From the IMG/VR virus record IMGVR_UViG_3300000439_000004, positions 1-64,000 of that record: a stretch of DNA of 64,000 bases. The stretch is one strand, 5' to 3'. The number at the start of each line of letters is the position of its first letter. Position 1 is the first letter of the stretch. Source of the DNA: a virus (Duplodnaviria; Caudoviricetes). The translations under genes and the position numbers were made by a program. The notes beneath the pieces were generated by a model that did not search any database, had not been told where the DNA came from, and saw only the letters and a list, made by a program, of their open reading frames with translations. Shown here one piece after another: positions 3,134 to 53,815 of this stretch.

Positions 3134-3239
3134 AATTTCAATCTTAAGCAAGCTCCGACTCTGGATCTTAAGTACAAAAAAAATCCCCACATTTCTGTGA
3201 GGACTATATTCGGTTTTTACACAAACCGTAACTAACTTC

Positions 3240-28944: not shown

Positions 28945-28999
28945 ATATTTTAAAGAACTATTGCAAATATAAGAAGAAAATTTGAAATAAAAAAATTAT

Positions 29000-42624: not shown

Positions 42625-42684
42625 ATATTATAAATATAATAAAATGAGCGATAAATGTAAATTGAAAAAAAAAATAATTTAAAG

Positions 42685-42756
42685 AGCGATAAAGAAGATT
42701 CGAACTTCCATATCCGAATTGGTAATCCGGAGTAATAACCATTATACTATTATCGC
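42685..42756 (-). tRNA. tRNA-Gly(ACC)
   Basis: GCG..CGC U73 Gly body; CCGGA TT ACC AA TTCGG. Confidence 0.75.
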
Positions 42757-44497: not shown

Positions 44498-44614
44498 ATT
44501 TAACATACATCAATATAATCAGGAATTGTATCCATAACAATTATAAATCATGTATGTTTTTTGTGCCCTAGGCGGGGGTCGAACCCGCACCCCCATTGCT
44601 GGGGACGGGATTTT

Positions 44615-45559
44615 CTTACCACTATAATTTTCATTACCATTTTATAATGTTTGTGGTCTGGACTTTCTCTTTACCATGTCAGTTATTCCATATAATTCAC
44701 ACCATTTATGTACAGCTTTATCTGAAACATTATAATGTTTACCAACTTGAACAAATGATCCATATATTTCAAATGATTTTAATAAATCAGGAACTTTAGG
44801 TATATTTGTTCTTGAGTGTTCTCTATAACACTCAGTTGAACAATATTTACTTTCATTCCGACTAAAAATAAAATCATTATTACAATGTAAACATTTTTTT
44901 GTTTTAACTGATTTAGGTATATCGTGTAAAGTCTCTGCACCTTCTCTATTTTTAATAGAGCTTGGCTCAGGATTAACAGTTAAGTCTTCCCTGAATTTAC
45001 GATATTCTACATCTCTCTTTTCAGAAAGTGCACTCAATTTATTTTTACTACGAAAATTTGATGTCATTGAATGACAGTTAGGGCAAAGTATTTCTAAGTT
45101 TTCAATACGATTATCCATATTATTACCATTTATATGATTAAGTTCTAATTTAATAGGTTGATTTAACCAAATTGTATTTTCACATCTTTCACATTTATAT
45201 TCTTTAATATTTTCTTTAATTAATCGTTTTCTTAATGAATTAGTATTTGAATATGTAGAATTTTCTACTAAAATTTCAGATAAAGATTGTTTTTTAGAAA
45301 ATGTCTTATATCTTGTACCAGTATTCCATCCTTTTCCTGTAAAATGATTAATATTAATATTATTTTTTTTTAACATAATATTAATAGTTTTATAATTACC
45401 ACCAACAGGTCTAATACTTAATTCTCTGCAAACTTGTGCAATACTTAATGATTTACTAACTGCAATTTCTAATTCTTCTTTTGTGTATTTATGTTTCATA
45501 TATAATAAATATATCGAACTAACACAAAAGTTAATTAAATTAATCGTGTATCACTTTTT
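44615..45559 (-). mobile_element. Group I intron (IC3-like) with HNH ORF
   Basis: P AAATTCAGGGAA, Q AATCCTGAG, R GTGCAGAGACT, S AAGAGAAAGTCC, terminal G; insertion after U34. Confidence 0.88.
44642..45499 (-). CDS. Intron-encoded HNH endonuclease
   Basis: LELNHINGNNMDNRIENLEILCPNCH. Confidence 0.85.
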   Translation of the reverse strand: MKHKYTKEELEIAVSKSLSIAQVCRELSIRPVGGNYKTINIMLKKNNININHFTGKGWNTGTRYKTFSKKQSLSEILVENSTYSNTNSLRKRLIKENIKEYKCERCENTIWLNQPIKLELNHINGNNMDNRIENLEILCPNCHSMTSNFRSKNKLSALSEKRDVEYRKFREDLTVNPEPSSIKNREGAETLHDIPKSVKTKKCLHCNNDFIFSRNESKYCSTECYREHSRTNIPKVPDLLKSFEIYGSFVQVGKHYNVSDKAVHKWCELYGITDMVKRKSRPQTL

Positions 45560-45657
45560 AAGTCCCGCGTGTCTACCTAGTTTCACCACCAGGGCAACTT
45601 ATTCCACAATGTCAAAGAAATTTAATTTTTATTTTTTCTTATGATATTTATATACAT

Positions 45658-46541: not shown

Positions 46542-46827
46542 CTTACTAATAATTATATGCAAATATACGAAAAGTTTTTCAAACTACAAAATATTTTTAT
46601 TTTTTTTTTATTATACTTTGTTTTCGTACTTTGATGAGGCAAATATAAGTGAAATATTTGGAATAATAAAATGTTTTTTAAAATATTTATTTATAAATGA
46701 AAATAATCAGAAAGATATTATGTTTTGTAGGTTTTCATCGTTATATTGATTGTGATGAATGTGATCTAAAAAACAAAGTATCAATTATGGTTAAATGTGA
46801 GATTTGTGGGAAAATTAGTGGTAATGG

Positions 46828-49963: not shown

Positions 49964-50039
49964 TGGAGCCAAAGACAGGGTTCGAACCTGCGACCTGATC
50001 ATTACAAATGACCGGCTCTACCAACTGAGCTACTTGGGC
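49964..50039 (-). tRNA. tRNA-Thr(TGT)
   Basis: Cloverleaf with encoded CCA. Confidence 0.9.
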
Positions 50040-50244
50040 GTTTGACACCTTTATTTATCCAACTTACAGGTGTCGTAGCTGTCCCTTTTCAGGTTAGGAA
50101 TAGACTTCATGGGTTACTATTTATTCCCGCTTTCAGTAGATAGTCAATCTAAATAGAACATTGTCCTATAATCAGTCCTATATGGTCATCACTCCATTTC
50201 TCATCGTATAAGGCATACTATCCGTTGTCATGTTTCGGATCGTG

Positions 50245-50316
50245 TAGCGGGGAGTGGGTTCGAACCACTGACCTAAAGGTTATGAGCCTTCCGAGCTACC
50301 GCTGCTCTACCCCGCA
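50245..50316 (-). tRNA. tRNA-fMet(CAT)
   Basis: 1:72 mismatch, GAGC/GCTC D stem. Confidence 0.85.
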
Positions 50317-50324
50317 ATCTCTAT

Positions 50325-50774
50325 TTATGTAAAACTATTAATTATTTCTTTAACAGTATTTGCATCTGACATACCAGGAAAAGATTTATTAAATAATCCA
50401 ATTGCTTTTCCAATTTTCTTATTAATATTGGATTCATCACTTAAAGAATCCAATATCTTTTTTATTTCAATTTCCATTTCTTCTTTTGTTAAAGGTTTTG
50501 GCATATATTTTTCCAAAACTAACATTTCATTTTTTTCATTTTCAGACAAATCTAAACGATTACCTTTGATGAATTCATCATAAGATTGTTTTCTTTGTTT
50601 GATACAATTTGAAATTACCTTCAAAATACTTTCTTCAGTTAATTCTTGATTAGAATTTAACTTTTCTGATTCAGTAATTTTTGATTTTAAACTACTCAAA
50701 GCATTTTTTGTTACTTGATCTTTTGCTTTCATTGCAACAACAAAATCATTTTGTATTTGTTCTTTTAATTTCAT
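50325..50774 (-). CDS. GatB/YqeY domain protein
   Basis: MKLKEQIQND...AMKAKD..IKQRKQS..E..VLEKYMP. Confidence 0.85.
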   Translation of the reverse strand: MKLKEQIQNDFVVAMKAKDQVTKNALSSLKSKITESEKLNSNQELTEESILKVISNCIKQRKQSYDEFIKGNRLDLSENEKNEMLVLEKYMPKPLTKEEMEIEIKKILDSLSDESNINKKIGKAIGLFNKSFPGMSDANTVKEIINSFT

Positions 50775-50841
50775 TTCTTTATGTTTTTTAATTTAACAAT
50801 GCAAATATAGATAAAAATTTTTAAATAAAAAAAAATATTTG

Positions 50842-50999
50842 TTCCGTAACCAGGAATCGAACCTGGGATCTCCGCCACATGCACGGCGGTGAGATTTAGC
50901 CTTTCTTCACTTGATATGAGTAACTTTTGTTTTTGCGTTGCTCACCGCTCGAACATATAAACTCATTCATCCGATTTGCTTCCACTTCTCTACTACGGG
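50842..50999 (-). ncRNA. Giant tRNA-like RNA with expanded D region
   Basis: Acceptor CCCGTAG/TTACGGA, CCGCC-GTGCATGT-GGCGG, T arm CCAGG TTCGATT CCTGG. Confidence 0.55.
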
Positions 51000-51009
51000 A
51001 AAGTTATAG

Positions 51010-51082
51010 TTGCTACGTCTGGGAATCGAACCCAGTTATTTTGGCTTATGAGACCAACGAAATACCTTACCTCCCACCAGCT
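51010..51082 (-). tRNA. tRNA(CAT), Met-type, irregular acceptor
   Basis: TTGGT CT CAT AA GCCAA; good T arm. Confidence 0.65.
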
Positions 51083-51095
51083 ATTTATTGTACTT

Positions 51096-51172
51096 TGGTA
51101 GCGTATATTGGATTTGAACCAATGAATGTATCCTTATGAGAGATATGTGTTCGACCACTTCACCAATACGCC
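51096..51172 (-). tRNA. tRNA-Met(CAT)
   Basis: Cloverleaf with CCA. Confidence 0.85.
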
Positions 51173-51255
51173 AAAAGAGCCCCGATATTTTCATAAGTAC
51201 TTAATCTTCATTTACCTGGCTCGGGGCCACACTGGTAAATTACTTCCTTACTTTG

Positions 51256-51346
51256 CGGAGAAGATAGGACTCGAACCTACACACCAGCTCATCACCGATG
51301 ACCCGTTTTCAAGACGAGGCCGATACCAATTTCGGTTTACTTCTCC
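51256..51346 (-). tRNA. tRNA-Ser(TGA)
   Basis: Long variable arm; G73. Confidence 0.88.
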
Positions 51347-51375
51347 ATTAAAACAAATACAAAAAAGTCCAAAAG

Positions 51376-51452
51376 GGTGATTAACCAGGTATGATCTGGC
51401 ACTCTTCTGCTCCACAAACAGACGCTTTAATTCCATTTAAGCGATAACCACC
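51376..51452 (-). tRNA. tRNA-His(GTG)
   Basis: G-1:C73; loop TT GTG GA. Confidence 0.8.
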
Positions 51453-51463
51453 ATGTATATATG

Positions 51464-51611
51464 TGTTGATAATGGGATTTGAACCCACAAGTTGGTGACT
51501 AAATCAACAATTATTTTCATTGTCATCTGGTTTACTAAAACAGGAAATCCATAAATGGTCCAAATATTTTCCTCAAACAGTAATCATGTTTACCAATTCC
51601 ATCACATCAAC
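51464..51611 (-). ncRNA. Giant tRNA-like RNA (Leu-type body, ~70-nt anticodon-arm insertion)
   Basis: Acceptor GTTGATG/TATCAAC, D arm ATG GAATTGGTAAA CAT, T arm GTGGG TTCAAAT CCCAT. Confidence 0.6.
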
Positions 51612-51707
51612 AATATAAAAAATAAACATTGCTATCAGGGTTTAAATGTCGCTCGGAATGACTTACTGACACCAACTGATTTTACAGTTTCTTAGTTTAT
51701 TTTTTTG

Positions 51708-51788
51708 AGGCCAAGGTCAGATTCGAACTGACGTGTTTAATATATCGGGTTTGCAATCCGACCTCTTCAACCACTCGAGCACTTGACC
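51708..51788 (-). tRNA. tRNA-Cys(GCA)
   Basis: Loop TT GCA AA; U73. Confidence 0.85.
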
Positions 51789-51801
51789 ATGTTTTTTTTA
51801 G

Positions 51802-51875
51802 AAGTCTCAGAGGGATTTGAACCCATCAACCTCTCGTTTCGTAGACGAGTGCTCTTCCAATTGAGCTATGAGACC
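51802..51875 (-). tRNA. tRNA-Arg(ACG)
   Basis: Loop CT ACG AA. Confidence 0.85.
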
Positions 51876-51880
51876 AATTG

Positions 51881-51962
51881 CACACCACACCCGACTCGAA
51901 CAGGTATTGAGAAACTCTCACGATTTTGGAGATCGCTGCATTACCAATTATGCTAGTGATGT
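51881..51962 (-). tRNA. tRNA-Trp(CCA), extended variable arm
   Basis: Loop CT CCA AA; G73. Confidence 0.8.
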
Positions 51963-52042
51963 GTTTTTATTTTATTTCTTGTAATTGTTTTCTTAAATCT
52001 TGAATTTTTGTTAAGTAACCTGATACTGATATTTCAGCAGTG

Positions 52043-52234
52043 TTAGATATTTTTTGTTTCAGATTTGTTTTCATTTCTTCTTTTTTTATATAAATGATAA
52101 TCAAATCCTACTTCATTACATAATTTTTTTATTTTTTCACAATTTCTATATTTATCATCATTATATAATTTTCTAGCACCATCATTTAATGATACACAAT
52201 TATTTAAAAAATTTAAAATTTCATCTTTATTCAT
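52043..52234 (-). pseudogene. Truncated homing-endonuclease N-terminal fragment
   Basis: MNKDEILNFLNNCVSLND.. resembles N-termini of neighbouring HNH genes; no nuclease domain. Confidence 0.4.
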
Positions 52235-52296
52235 ATAAATAAATATATGAAAATGTGGTTTAAATGTAAATGGAACCACAATAAAAAAAATTTTTG

Positions 52297-52370
52297 TGTC
52301 AACAACCAGATTCGAACTGGTAACTACTAGGTGCTTCAAACCTAAGCTCTACCATTGGAGCTATGTTGAC
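52297..52370 (-). tRNA. tRNA-Phe(GAA)
   Basis: TAGGT TT GAA GC ACCTA. Confidence 0.85.
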
Positions 52371-52455
52371 ATTTTTATCCATATTTCAAAGAACATATAT
52401 CGTTTCCGATTGTTCAGCAAAGATAATAATATTTTTGATTCTACCAAATTTATTT

Positions 52456-53223
52456 TTATTGAATATTTTTATTATATTTTTTATCCCACATTTCTATTCG
52501 TTCTAATAATTGATTGTATGTTAAAATAGATTTTTTGTTTTTAGAAACATTTTCATTATGTATCATTAATTTACAATTTGCCGGATGTGATAATAATTTA
52601 GGATTAATACCTTTATTAAAACCATCTTTAACTGATAACATATGATCCCTACTTACACCACTTAAATTATTACCTCTATTTTTAGGTTTATACCAACCAT
52701 ATTTTTCAATTAACGAAAAATCAAATTCATTTGGATAATCATTCAAACTAAATTTAAAATTGGTTTCTTGTTTATATTTGGCAAATTCAGTCATATCTTT
52801 TTGATTGTTTTGTTTTTTACAATTATCTGAACAAAATTTTTTACGTATTTTTTTTTCTATTAGAATATCACAATTTTTACATTTAATAGTTTTATTTACT
52901 AATTTATTCTTATGTGATATAGACATTCTTTTTTTTGTTTCATTTGTAACTACTCTACCTATATTAGTAAATGAAGTGGAACATGACTGAGAACAAAATG
53001 AATTTCTTCTTTTTTCGTAACTTAAAATTTTATTACATTTTGGATTTAAACAAAATTTTAATTTTTTTTCATAAAGTTCTTTTGTTTTTTCAGTTAACCC
53101 ATTGCCATTTTTACTATAATCTCTTAAATTTTTATTTACATGATAATTTCTACATTTAAAAGAACAATAAATTCTATTGTTTTCAATTTCTTTGTTACAC
53201 TCAATATTTTTACATTTATTCAT
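52456..53223 (-). CDS. Putative HNH-like homing endonuclease
   Basis: Zn-finger repeats; SRDHMLSV..HPANC..N. Confidence 0.7.
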   Translation of the reverse strand: MNKCKNIECNKEIENNRIYCSFKCRNYHVNKNLRDYSKNGNGLTEKTKELYEKKLKFCLNPKCNKILSYEKRRNSFCSQSCSTSFTNIGRVVTNETKKRMSISHKNKLVNKTIKCKNCDILIEKKIRKKFCSDNCKKQNNQKDMTEFAKYKQETNFKFSLNDYPNEFDFSLIEKYGWYKPKNRGNNLSGVSRDHMLSVKDGFNKGINPKLLSHPANCKLMIHNENVSKNKKSILTYNQLLERIEMWDKKYNKNIQ

Positions 53224-53278
53224 ATTTATAAATATTAATAAAATGGAAAAAAGTAAAGACGAATTAAAAACAATTTAG

Positions 53279-53355
53279 TGGAAGTTACGGTGAACGATAC
53301 CGTCTGATTTCCGCATTGCAAGTGCGGTGACCACACCAATGCAGTCCCAACCCCC
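53279..53355 (-). tRNA. tRNA-Ala(TGC)
   Basis: G3.U70; CCGCA CT TGC AA TGCGG. Confidence 0.8.
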
Positions 53356-53435
53356 ATTTAATTCCCCATATTTCAAAGATCAGATGCTCATCCACTAGAG
53401 CTTCACCCCCATTTTTTTTAAAGAACTATATAAAC

Positions 53436-53467
53436 AAAAAAACCTCGGAAGGTTATTCCGAGGTTTT
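53436..53467 (-). terminator. Attenuator terminator of right tRNA operon
   Basis: AAAACCTCGGAA-TAACC-TTCCGAGGTTTTTTT. Confidence 0.85.
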
Positions 53468-53491
53468 CACTTATAATGTTAAAATTAAAAT

Positions 53492-53593
53492 TTAACTTAA
53501 ATCAGTATCAACAACTCGGAACATAATAATATCACGCTCATCCGCCCATTTTGAACAGATTGTAAACGACATCGTATGTTTGAATTGTTTCAT
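53492..53593 (-). CDS. Leader peptide of right tRNA operon (33 aa)
   Basis: MKQFKHTMSFTICSKWADERDIIMFRVVDTDLS*, between promoter TATATTTG (53656-53663) and terminator. Confidence 0.8.
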   Translation of the reverse strand: MKQFKHTMSFTICSKWADERDIIMFRVVDTDLS

Positions 53594-53815
53594 TGAAATT
53601 CTTTTATTTTTTTTACTTTATAATACCTCAGATACTATTTTCTCCGATTGTATTGCAAATATAGATATAAATATTGGAATAAACAAGAAAAGTTCAAAGT
53701 TTTTTAAAAATATTTTTTTTTATTTTATTTTTCCATATTTTTTTAAGATGTTTATATTGTGAAATTAAAAGATTAATAATTCAATCTTTTCTGAATTTTT
53801 AATATATTTATTAAT

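Follow-up and report, generated by a model that had tools for sequence, protein, structure and literature searches.

A probable leader-peptide attenuator ahead of a tRNA gene block in a phage-like genome

The window analyzed here is a 64,000-nt stretch that forms the first part of a single contig of 162,180 bp (IMG/VR record IMGVR_UViG_3300000439_000004; 27.6% G+C), which from its sequence looks like a large phage. ARAGORN called a transfer-messenger RNA (tmRNA) gene, an amber-suppressor transfer RNA (tRNA) gene and 21 other tRNA genes, arranged in two blocks and all on the minus strand, and Pfam identified a T4 Rnl1-type RNA ligase, a YqeY-like gene and, among the tRNA genes, endonuclease genes. 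The subject of this analysis is the module that heads the right-hand block. It lies on the minus strand throughout and consists, in order, of a promoter, an open reading frame (ORF) of 33 codons, an intrinsic terminator and a boxA-like motif, behind which the tRNA genes follow. A preliminary description of this DNA had given the same order for a 33-residue ORF, and every part was found where it had been placed. The promoters are of the Bacteroidota type (TTTG ... TAnnTTTG); the form TATATTTGCA occurs nine times in the 162-kb genome, on the minus strand in all cases, before the tmRNA, tRNA units and genes. The parts of the right-hand module, all on the minus strand, are as follows.

53686-53684 (TTG) and 53663-53656 (-7 box, TATATTTG), minus strand: Bacteroidota-type promoter, predicted from the sequence
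53594-53650, minus strand: presumed 5' untranslated leader of about 57 nt, placed from the promoter position, with AATTTCA directly before the ATG
53492-53593, minus strand: leader ORF, 33 codons plus stop, MKQFKHTMSFTICSKWADERDIIMFRVVDTDLS (ORF call)
53567-53589, minus strand: region 1 (protector), including AACATACGATGTC at 53580-53568, from its pairing with region 2 in the minimum free energy (MFE) fold
53534-53578, minus strand: sensing core, codons 6-20, HTMSFTICSKWADER, with 13 different amino acids in 15 codons, conserved in the class A leaders described below
53541-53559, minus strand: central hairpin UCUGUUCA-AAA-UGGGCGGA, codons 12-18, inside the core (RNAalifold, 21 leaders)
53510-53533, minus strand: region 2, with the antiterminator core GTTCCGAG at 53522-53515, able to pair with region 1 or with the terminator 5' arm
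53432-53468, minus strand: intrinsic terminator, stem 53468-53438 of 13 pairs with arms AAAACCUCGGAA and UUCCGAGGUUUU, and U-run
53415-53426, minus strand: boxA-like motif GTTCTTTAAAAA (motif scan)
53370-53410, minus strand: truncated stretch resembling a tRNA 5' half and running into a second boxA-like motif at 53381-53370 (sequence, weak fold, motif scan)

A scan of a 16.5-kb stretch detected 15 terminator-like sites, this terminator among them, where 4.8 were expected; its hairpin alone was calculated at -17.1 kcal/mol. The boxA-like motif GTTCTTTRAMAT matched 19 times in the window compared to 6.7 expected. Seven of the 19 matches either precede a tRNA or tmRNA gene or follow one of the two terminators; such matches lie before the tmRNA (28958), tRNA-Phe (52394) and the 5' exon of a tRNA-Leu (45620) and past both terminators. 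The motif is also present in relatives. We take the motif to resemble the rrn boxA, with a candidate function. Rfam had no family for the leader and returned a weak MicC-like match on the terminator alone, while neither ARAGORN nor Rfam called a tRNA in the 53370-53410 stretch.

The left block is headed by a paralogous module (46567-46380), with the promoter at 46567, the ORF at 46541-46440 and the terminator at 46415-46380. Both leaders have 33 codons and a gap of 23 to 24 nt between stop codon and terminator, and each carries near its 3' end a copy of the 3' arm of its own terminator; the peptides and the terminators differ. A MAFFT alignment of the two leaders of this genome gave no meaningful register. 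The RNA words AACAUAC and UAUGUUC are common to both, but in different reading frames. Taken together, the two leaders use all 20 amino acids, as had been claimed and as can be read from the sequences.

Relatives and the match between leader codons and tRNA genes

The starting point for comparison was the loci around homologues of the neighbouring RNA ligase, in phages with a ligase only about 40% identical. Leader-terminator modules were found at these loci directly before tRNA arrays. Viral contigs were scanned for the terminator core alone (ACCTCG...CGAGGTTTTTT), which gave 116 stretches. In a set of 148 loci, 27 matches to this core preceded same-strand tRNA genes by no more than 1.5 kb, and a short ORF was present just upstream in all 15 of these matches inspected. 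Loci L140, L076 and L114, first found by this pattern, which is blind to the peptide, have the peptide core of the right-hand leader of this window. A back-translated pattern for HTMSF[TI]ICSKW recovered 32 viral contigs, referred to as class A. All 32 have an ATG-initiated ORF of 29 to 34 codons with a terminator 20 to 29 nt past its stop codon, and the start context AAATTCA-ATG is common to 20 of the 21 aligned leaders. A tRNA array on the same strand follows in 31 of the contigs, and the remaining one ends 74 nt past the stop. Among 50,697 phage records, blastn and tblastn detected the class A leader in no cultured relative, the nearest RNA ligase matches there being 33 to 37% identical, and the class A pattern had no match in prokaryote genomes (one genome per species).

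In these relatives the conserved first array reads (Ala) Ile(gat) Phe Lys (Val/Glu) Trp Arg(acg) Cys His Met Thr Asp Ser(tga) Glu. It is followed by a second leader (class B) and then by Leu(taa) Arg(tct) Pro Asn Leu(tag) Tyr (Ile tat) Met Val Thr Gly Gly Gln Ser(gct). From leader codons without a counterpart in this phage, the preliminary description had predicted that tRNAs for Lys, Ile(GAT), Asp and Glu would be found behind the leaders of relatives. This was borne out in the 16 distinct complete first blocks, where Ile(gat) was present in 16, Lys in 15, Glu in 13 and Asp in 11. A distant relative (L018:7230-7340) has a promoter, a terminator and tRNA-Lys with no leader ORF; the terminator is kept and the sensing part is gone.

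Since a short ORF with a terminator is common in phage genomes, the leader could simply encode a small protein and end in a terminator of its own, having nothing to do with the tRNA genes behind it. We consider this highly improbable. The ORF is constantly positioned immediately before tRNA arrays, it contains a copy of the terminator 3' arm that covaries with the 5' arm, and the statistics of its codon-to-tRNA match, given next, also weigh against this reading.

The core HTMSFTICSKWADER has 13 different amino acids, and the tRNAs of the conserved first block have precisely these 13 specificities. Of 486,071 background windows of 15 residues, drawn from the phages' own long ORFs, none had at least 13 different residues all within the first-block set. 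The match was also determined for 17 unrelated-looking leader families obtained by a blind scan for a short ORF, a terminator and a tRNA. When the array carried a given tRNA, the leader had its amino acid in 138 of 143 cases; when the array was without it, in 98 of 180 (odds ratio 23, p = 1.4e-19). The observed overlap score was reached by none of 100,000 permutations of arrays among leaders. Against windows from the phages' own proteins, the joint probability was below 0.01 in most families, with a combined p of 5e-20. The rare residues W, C and H occur in a leader when, and nearly only when, the array carries their tRNA; thus, Trp codons were present in eight of nine leaders with a Trp tRNA in the array and in none of the eight without one. 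Met aside, the leaders of L025, L124 and L104 cover 15 of 15, 15 of 15 and 13 of 13 of their own arrays, respectively. One leader of 26 codons, nine of them Lys, stands before three Lys tRNAs, and the Ser/Arg-rich leader MKMVNTNTSSSRSSNSSKIRS stands before tRNAs for Arg, Ser, Arg and Ser. Contig L076 (ORFs at oriented positions 3181 and 7357) carries its Asp and Glu tRNAs in the class B block; D and E are gone from its class A leader (KWTAIRH) and have been gained by its class B leader (QETPNSVNGYDVPEVY).

In the present phage the left leader has its predicted switch at codons 23 to 25, and 19 of the 21 preceding codons match the left array; the two exceptions are the second codon, for Lys, and a single ATA, possibly decoded by a CAT tRNA listed by ARAGORN as Met. 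The match of the right leader alone is more modest, with 17 of 32 codons matching its own array compared to 10.9 expected and 8 of 8 array amino acids covered (joint P = 0.003). The partition of split codon families, claimed earlier for the Ser, Arg and Ile codons of the two leaders, also held between leader types across families: split-box codons (Ser TCN/AGY, Arg CGN/AGR, Leu, Ile ATY/ATA) follow the tRNA anticodons in 70 codons as against 25.

It might be argued that the leader senses translation in general, that is, ribosome availability or any elongation stress, and that the codon match reflects the codon habits of the phages. Each amino acid is present only one to three times, and any slowing within codons 2 to 21 would give the same structural outcome, both of which suit this view. 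Nevertheless, the match stands out against null windows taken from the phages' own ORFs, the two leaders of a genome have complementary sets that track their own blocks, the Asp/Glu swap in L076 involves leader and array alike, and W, C and H are almost confined to leaders with the matching tRNA. On these grounds the general sensor was judged unlikely.

The position of the matches within the leaders also bears on their role. Across families, they were concentrated before the switch, upstream of region 2 (241 of 334 codons, compared to 83 of 163 in the tail; p = 5.6e-6). Between the class B leaders of L156 and L170, the sensing window differs by seven synonymous changes and three that keep the amino-acid set, whereas the tail after it has no synonymous change and five replacements. 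This pattern is as expected from selection on codon identity in a translated window.

Alternative pairings and the predicted switch

Two mutually exclusive partners were examined for region 2. In the MFE fold of this leader, AACATACGATGTC (53580-53568) pairs with GATATTATTATGTT (53533-53520), with a fold z-score of -4.2 against shuffles, so the protector pairing described earlier (its GATATT-AT-TATGTT side) is present. The complementarity claimed between the leader and the terminator 5' arm was likewise confirmed: GTTCCGAG (53522-53515) is complementary to CTCGGAAT (53462-53455) with an RNAduplex energy of -12.6 kcal/mol, which no non-cognate arm equals. In the 5' untranslated region of the right leader, at 53621-53632 on the minus strand, there is also UCUGAGGU, which equilibrium folds pair with the terminator 5' arm as well.

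Across the family, duplexes between region 2 and its own arm averaged -10.3 kcal/mol, compared to -7.3 for non-cognate arms and -5.9 +/- 2.1 for shuffled sequences. The preliminary description had named the loss of the ORF or of the antiterminator pairing in orthologues as telling against it. Neither loss was seen; the ORF and terminator are kept in the 32 contigs, and the region 2-arm duplex starts in codon 24 or 25 in 18 of the 20 distinct class A leaders and changes along with the arm. Compensatory pairs of region 2 and arm were TCCCGAGG/CCTCGGGA, TCTCGAGG/CCTCGAGA, AGTCTCAG/CTGAGACT and TTCCGAG/CTCGGAA. Of the three helices drawn in the preliminary description, covariation was found for the region 2-arm duplex and for the terminator stem, in which three pairs have compensatory changes in the family, but the protector is not a consensus helix.

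To model the switch, the ribosome was given a leading edge of 13 nt, and the RNA between it and the terminator loop was folded alone. Region 2 sequestered the 5' arm for A-site codons up to 20 or 21 and left it free from about codon 23 in each of the 21 distinct class A leaders, which puts the predicted switch point immediately past the conserved core. Folding of truncated RNA with pairs allowed across the ribosome was rejected as a model, as it was confounded by the pairing of UCUGAGGU with the arm and by regions 1 and 2 re-forming around the ribosome.

Besides the terminator, the central hairpin was the sole conserved helix in the RNAalifold consensus of 21 leaders, and L076 keeps it despite changes that alter the peptide. 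It may be a polymerase pause hairpin. The hairpin bears on another explanation, in which the element works as an untranslated RNA that binds tRNA or protein directly or serves as a processing signal, with the reading frame incidental. Third codon positions in the core are mostly conserved, as is the hairpin within it, and translation of the leader is itself deduced from the sequence. However, the ATG, the frame and the length of 29 to 34 codons are kept in 32 of 32 contigs, changes in the window are synonymous or keep the set while the tail is freely replaced, families of unrelated nucleotide sequence have amino-acid sets that follow their arrays, and no Rfam family matches, the T-box included. 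An untranslated element is thus considered very unlikely.

It is probable that the module is a ribosome-mediated (leader-peptide) transcription attenuator placed before the phage tRNA block, with the leader serving as a checklist of one to three codons for each encoded tRNA. The phage would then probably make the tRNAs of the block when its checklist codons are read slowly by ribosomes. In the proposed mechanism, the host RNA polymerase would start at the TATATTTG promoter and a ribosome would translate the 33-codon ORF. With the A site within codons 2 to about 21, region 2 (GUUCCGAG, codons 24-27) would be exposed and would pair with the emerging 5' arm of the terminator. Slow decoding of any checklist codon would in this way allow the polymerase to pass the terminator, meet the boxA-like element and enter the tRNA genes. 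If all codons were read quickly, the ribosome would be at codon 23 or beyond, or at the stop codon, and would cover region 2; the terminator would form and a short leader RNA would be released. The result would be feedback, with the tRNA genes transcribed when their own products are in short supply, and the shortage could arise early in infection or from depletion or cleavage of host tRNAs. The anatomy, the family-wide conservation, the codon-to-tRNA match, the covariation of region 2 with the terminator and the predicted switch position are results of the analysis; that the ORF is translated and that the competition is kinetic is inferred, as are the direction of the response and its physiological trigger.

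Genes behind the terminator and other tRNA loci

The features between the right terminator and the end of its block, all on the minus strand, are as follows.

53275-53352, minus strand: degenerate tRNA-Ala(UGC)-like gene, the first gene past the terminator (blastn, partial cloverleaf fold)
52456-53223, minus strand: Cys-rich ORF of 255 amino acids, inserted between the tRNA-Ala-like gene and tRNA-Phe (ORF call)
52383-52447, minus strand: internal promoter-like site before tRNA-Phe, with TTTG at 52447-52444, TATCTTTG at 52425-52418 and boxA-like GTTCTTTGAAAT at 52394-52383 (consensus match)
49964-52370, minus strand: tRNA block Phe, Trp, Arg(ACG), Cys, His, Ser(TGA), Met, YqeY gene, Met, Thr(TGT) (ARAGORN, Pfam)

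Most of the tRNA genes claimed to lie downstream were confirmed, namely, Phe, Trp, Arg(ACG), Cys, His, Ser(TGA), two Met and Thr(TGT). The gene claimed for Ala is the degenerate tRNA-like gene. In blastn, annotated phage tRNA-Ala genes match it over 58 nt at 86% identity; it has the anticodon loop CUUGCAA and a G3:U70 pair readable in the sequence, and neither ARAGORN nor Rfam called it. Relatives have tRNA-Ala or a similar tRNA-like gene at the same position. In L140, L149, L152, L156 and others, a tRNA-like gene with a UUGCAA loop is conserved directly past the class A terminator, with a D stem of three pairs and an imperfect acceptor stem, and is not called by ARAGORN; it fills the site of a canonical tRNA-Ala(tgc) in other relatives. 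Pfam gave no confident family for the 255-residue ORF, which is not at this site in relatives, where Ile or Phe comes next directly. The preliminary description had cautioned that promoters at about 52420 and 50805 might bypass the attenuator. Promoter-like boxes do occur at 52425-52418 and at 50809, and the caution holds for this phage. The first transcribed bases at the former site (ACAATCGGA) are similar to those of the leader promoter, and the latter belongs to the YqeY-like gene (50325-50809, minus strand; Pfam E = 3e-32), which has its own TATATTTGCA promoter and lies between the two tRNA-Met(CAT) genes.

Several observations weigh against the attenuator as proposed. The class A contigs are a single lineage, and most were recovered with a search pattern in which the peptide is set beforehand. 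Each amino acid has no more than one to three codons, unlike the runs in the his, phe and leu leaders, and part of the conservation of the core is presumably at the RNA level given the conserved hairpin within it. The protector helix of this leader is not conserved in the family consensus, and in equilibrium folds without a ribosome, region 2 is already on the 5' arm in many relatives; because the protector is often outcompeted there, the predicted untranslated state is uncertain. For the full transcript at equilibrium, the terminator had P = 0.95 wherever the masked ribosome was placed. The switch must therefore be kinetic; that the terminator wins at equilibrium is true of classical attenuators too. 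In this genome, tRNAs for Ile(GAT), Lys, Asp and Glu are absent altogether, and a blastn search of the window with the tRNAs of relatives revealed no hidden genes for these four. The inserted ORF and 1.1 kb separate the terminator from tRNA-Phe, and transcription from the promoter-like sites at 52425 and 50809 could supply most of the block and bypass the attenuator. In six of seven relatives (L140, L149, L153, L156, L160, L164 and L170), a TATATTTG box is present past the class B terminator, in the interval from tRNA-Glu to tRNA-Leu(taa). The box lies 6 to 8 nt before GTTCTTTGACAT, with TTTG from the T-run of the terminator about 19 nt upstream, and judged by its sequence it may be a second promoter that overlaps the terminator and bypasses the attenuator.

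These points raise a further reading, compatible with the attenuator proposed above, in which the module is functional by descent but partly bypassed or decaying in this phage. The genes from Phe to Thr would then be transcribed mostly from the internal promoter-like sites, and the leader would control little beyond the tRNA-Ala-like gene and the inserted ORF. The promoter-like boxes with boxA-like motifs at 52447-52383 and 50809 favor it, as do the loss from the genome of 4 of the 13 sensed tRNAs, the degenerate state of the first gene past the terminator and the insertion of an ORF not at this site in relatives. On the other hand, this phage has kept an intact ORF, region 2 and terminator, the internal promoter-like sites are consensus matches only, and the change of TTCCGAG with CTCGGAA in region 2 and arm is a compensatory one specific to this phage, which argues for continued selection on the module. 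Bypass was accordingly regarded as possible but rather doubtful.

Other tRNA loci of the window have features of their own. A tRNA-Leu(UAA) gene appears to be split (44564-45595, minus strand), with its 5' part from 45595 to about 45556, ending in the anticodon loop CUUAAAA, and its 3' part, which comprises the variable arm, T arm and acceptor, at about 44612-44564. The approximately 950 nt between the halves contain an ORF for an HNH endonuclease (44642-45499), and the interruption is probably an intron with a homing endonuclease; neither ARAGORN nor Rfam called the split gene. At 36340-36598 (minus strand), a TATATTTGCA promoter is followed immediately by the boxA-like AGTTCTTTAAAATAT, then by about 245 nt that may be a structured RNA or a long tRNA leader, and then by a tRNA gene detected only by Rfam (36268-36339). 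The tmRNA has the same type of promoter (28945-28971, minus strand), and a 15-nt boxA-like 5' leader (AGTTCTTTAAAATAT) abuts its mature 5' end. At 42684-42756 (minus strand), ARAGORN called a tRNA-Gly with the anticodon ACC (A at position 34), where relatives have Gly(gcc) and Gly(tcc).

Comparison with known systems

Multivalent leader peptides are known from Escherichia coli, where thrL senses Thr and Ile, and ilvL and ivbL sense Ile, Leu and Val; trpL, hisL, pheL and leuL are other leaders of this kind of operon. The phage module has a short ORF between promoter and genes, an intrinsic terminator between ORF and genes and, as modeled, an antiterminator strand that can be covered by a ribosome finishing the ORF. 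Its codons match the products of the regulated genes in a variant form, with one to three per tRNA rather than runs. The pheL leader is a leader-peptide attenuator of the amino-acid biosynthesis class (PMC3082878). Like the attenuators of amino-acid operons, the phage module combines a promoter, a short ORF (here predicted to be translated) and a choice between 2:3 and 3:4 terminator pairing, and the supply of charged tRNA would be read through the speed of the ribosome. Unlike them, it would control tRNA genes rather than enzymes, its leader names 11 to 16 amino acids once or a few times instead of repeating one to three of them, this list is identical to the tRNA set of the operon downstream, and a boxA-like element lies past the terminator.

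The pheM leader of the E. coli pheST operon, encoding Phe-tRNA synthetase, has a run of Phe codons, senses one amino acid and controls a protein gene. Leader-peptide attenuation thus acts there, too, on a gene of the translation apparatus, but the phage leader would poll many amino acids and control tRNA genes. T-box leaders, which are not translated, bind uncharged tRNA directly through a specifier codon and the T-box sequence, and they share with the phage module transcription attenuation that reports the state of particular tRNAs. A T-box riboswitch was rejected, as Rfam returned no T-box family at either the gathering or the E-value threshold. The boxA sequence is GCUCUUUAACAA in E. coli and GUUCUUUGA in Bacillus. 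As in boxA/Nus antitermination of rRNA operons, a GTTCTTT(A/G)A motif occurs early in long untranslated RNA operons; here, unlike in rRNA operons, it is behind an attenuator and before phage tRNA and tmRNA genes, and an antitermination role is a candidate suggested by the motif.

The his leader has served to measure how fast single codons are read (PMC4046918), in support of attenuators that respond to single codons. No description of a codon-checklist attenuator of phage tRNA genes was found by full-text literature searches, subscription journals aside. What sets the phage module apart from known attenuators is the target, tRNA genes, and the checklist design. If the proposal is true, tRNA genes would for the first time be known to be under feedback control by tRNA supply, and leader-peptide attenuation would be extended from one to three sensed amino acids to 13 to 16. 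The leader would be a sequence-level readout of the tRNAs a phage "cares about" and would offer a compact natural part for the sensing of decoding speed.

Ideas on the presence of tRNA genes in phages include compensation for codon usage, replacement of degraded host tRNAs and escape from anticodon nucleases. The present finding would bear on why phages carry these genes and on how they are controlled. We lean, by a little, toward the broader hypothesis that a tRNA homeostat operates in large phages, both those of Bacteroidota-like hosts and others, in which a translated checklist polls the tRNAs of a block, one codon each, and the genes are turned on when any of them is limiting, for example, after the action of host anticodon nucleases or tRNA-depletion defences. 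Checklist and block would co-evolve, as is suggested by the Asp/Glu swap in L076.

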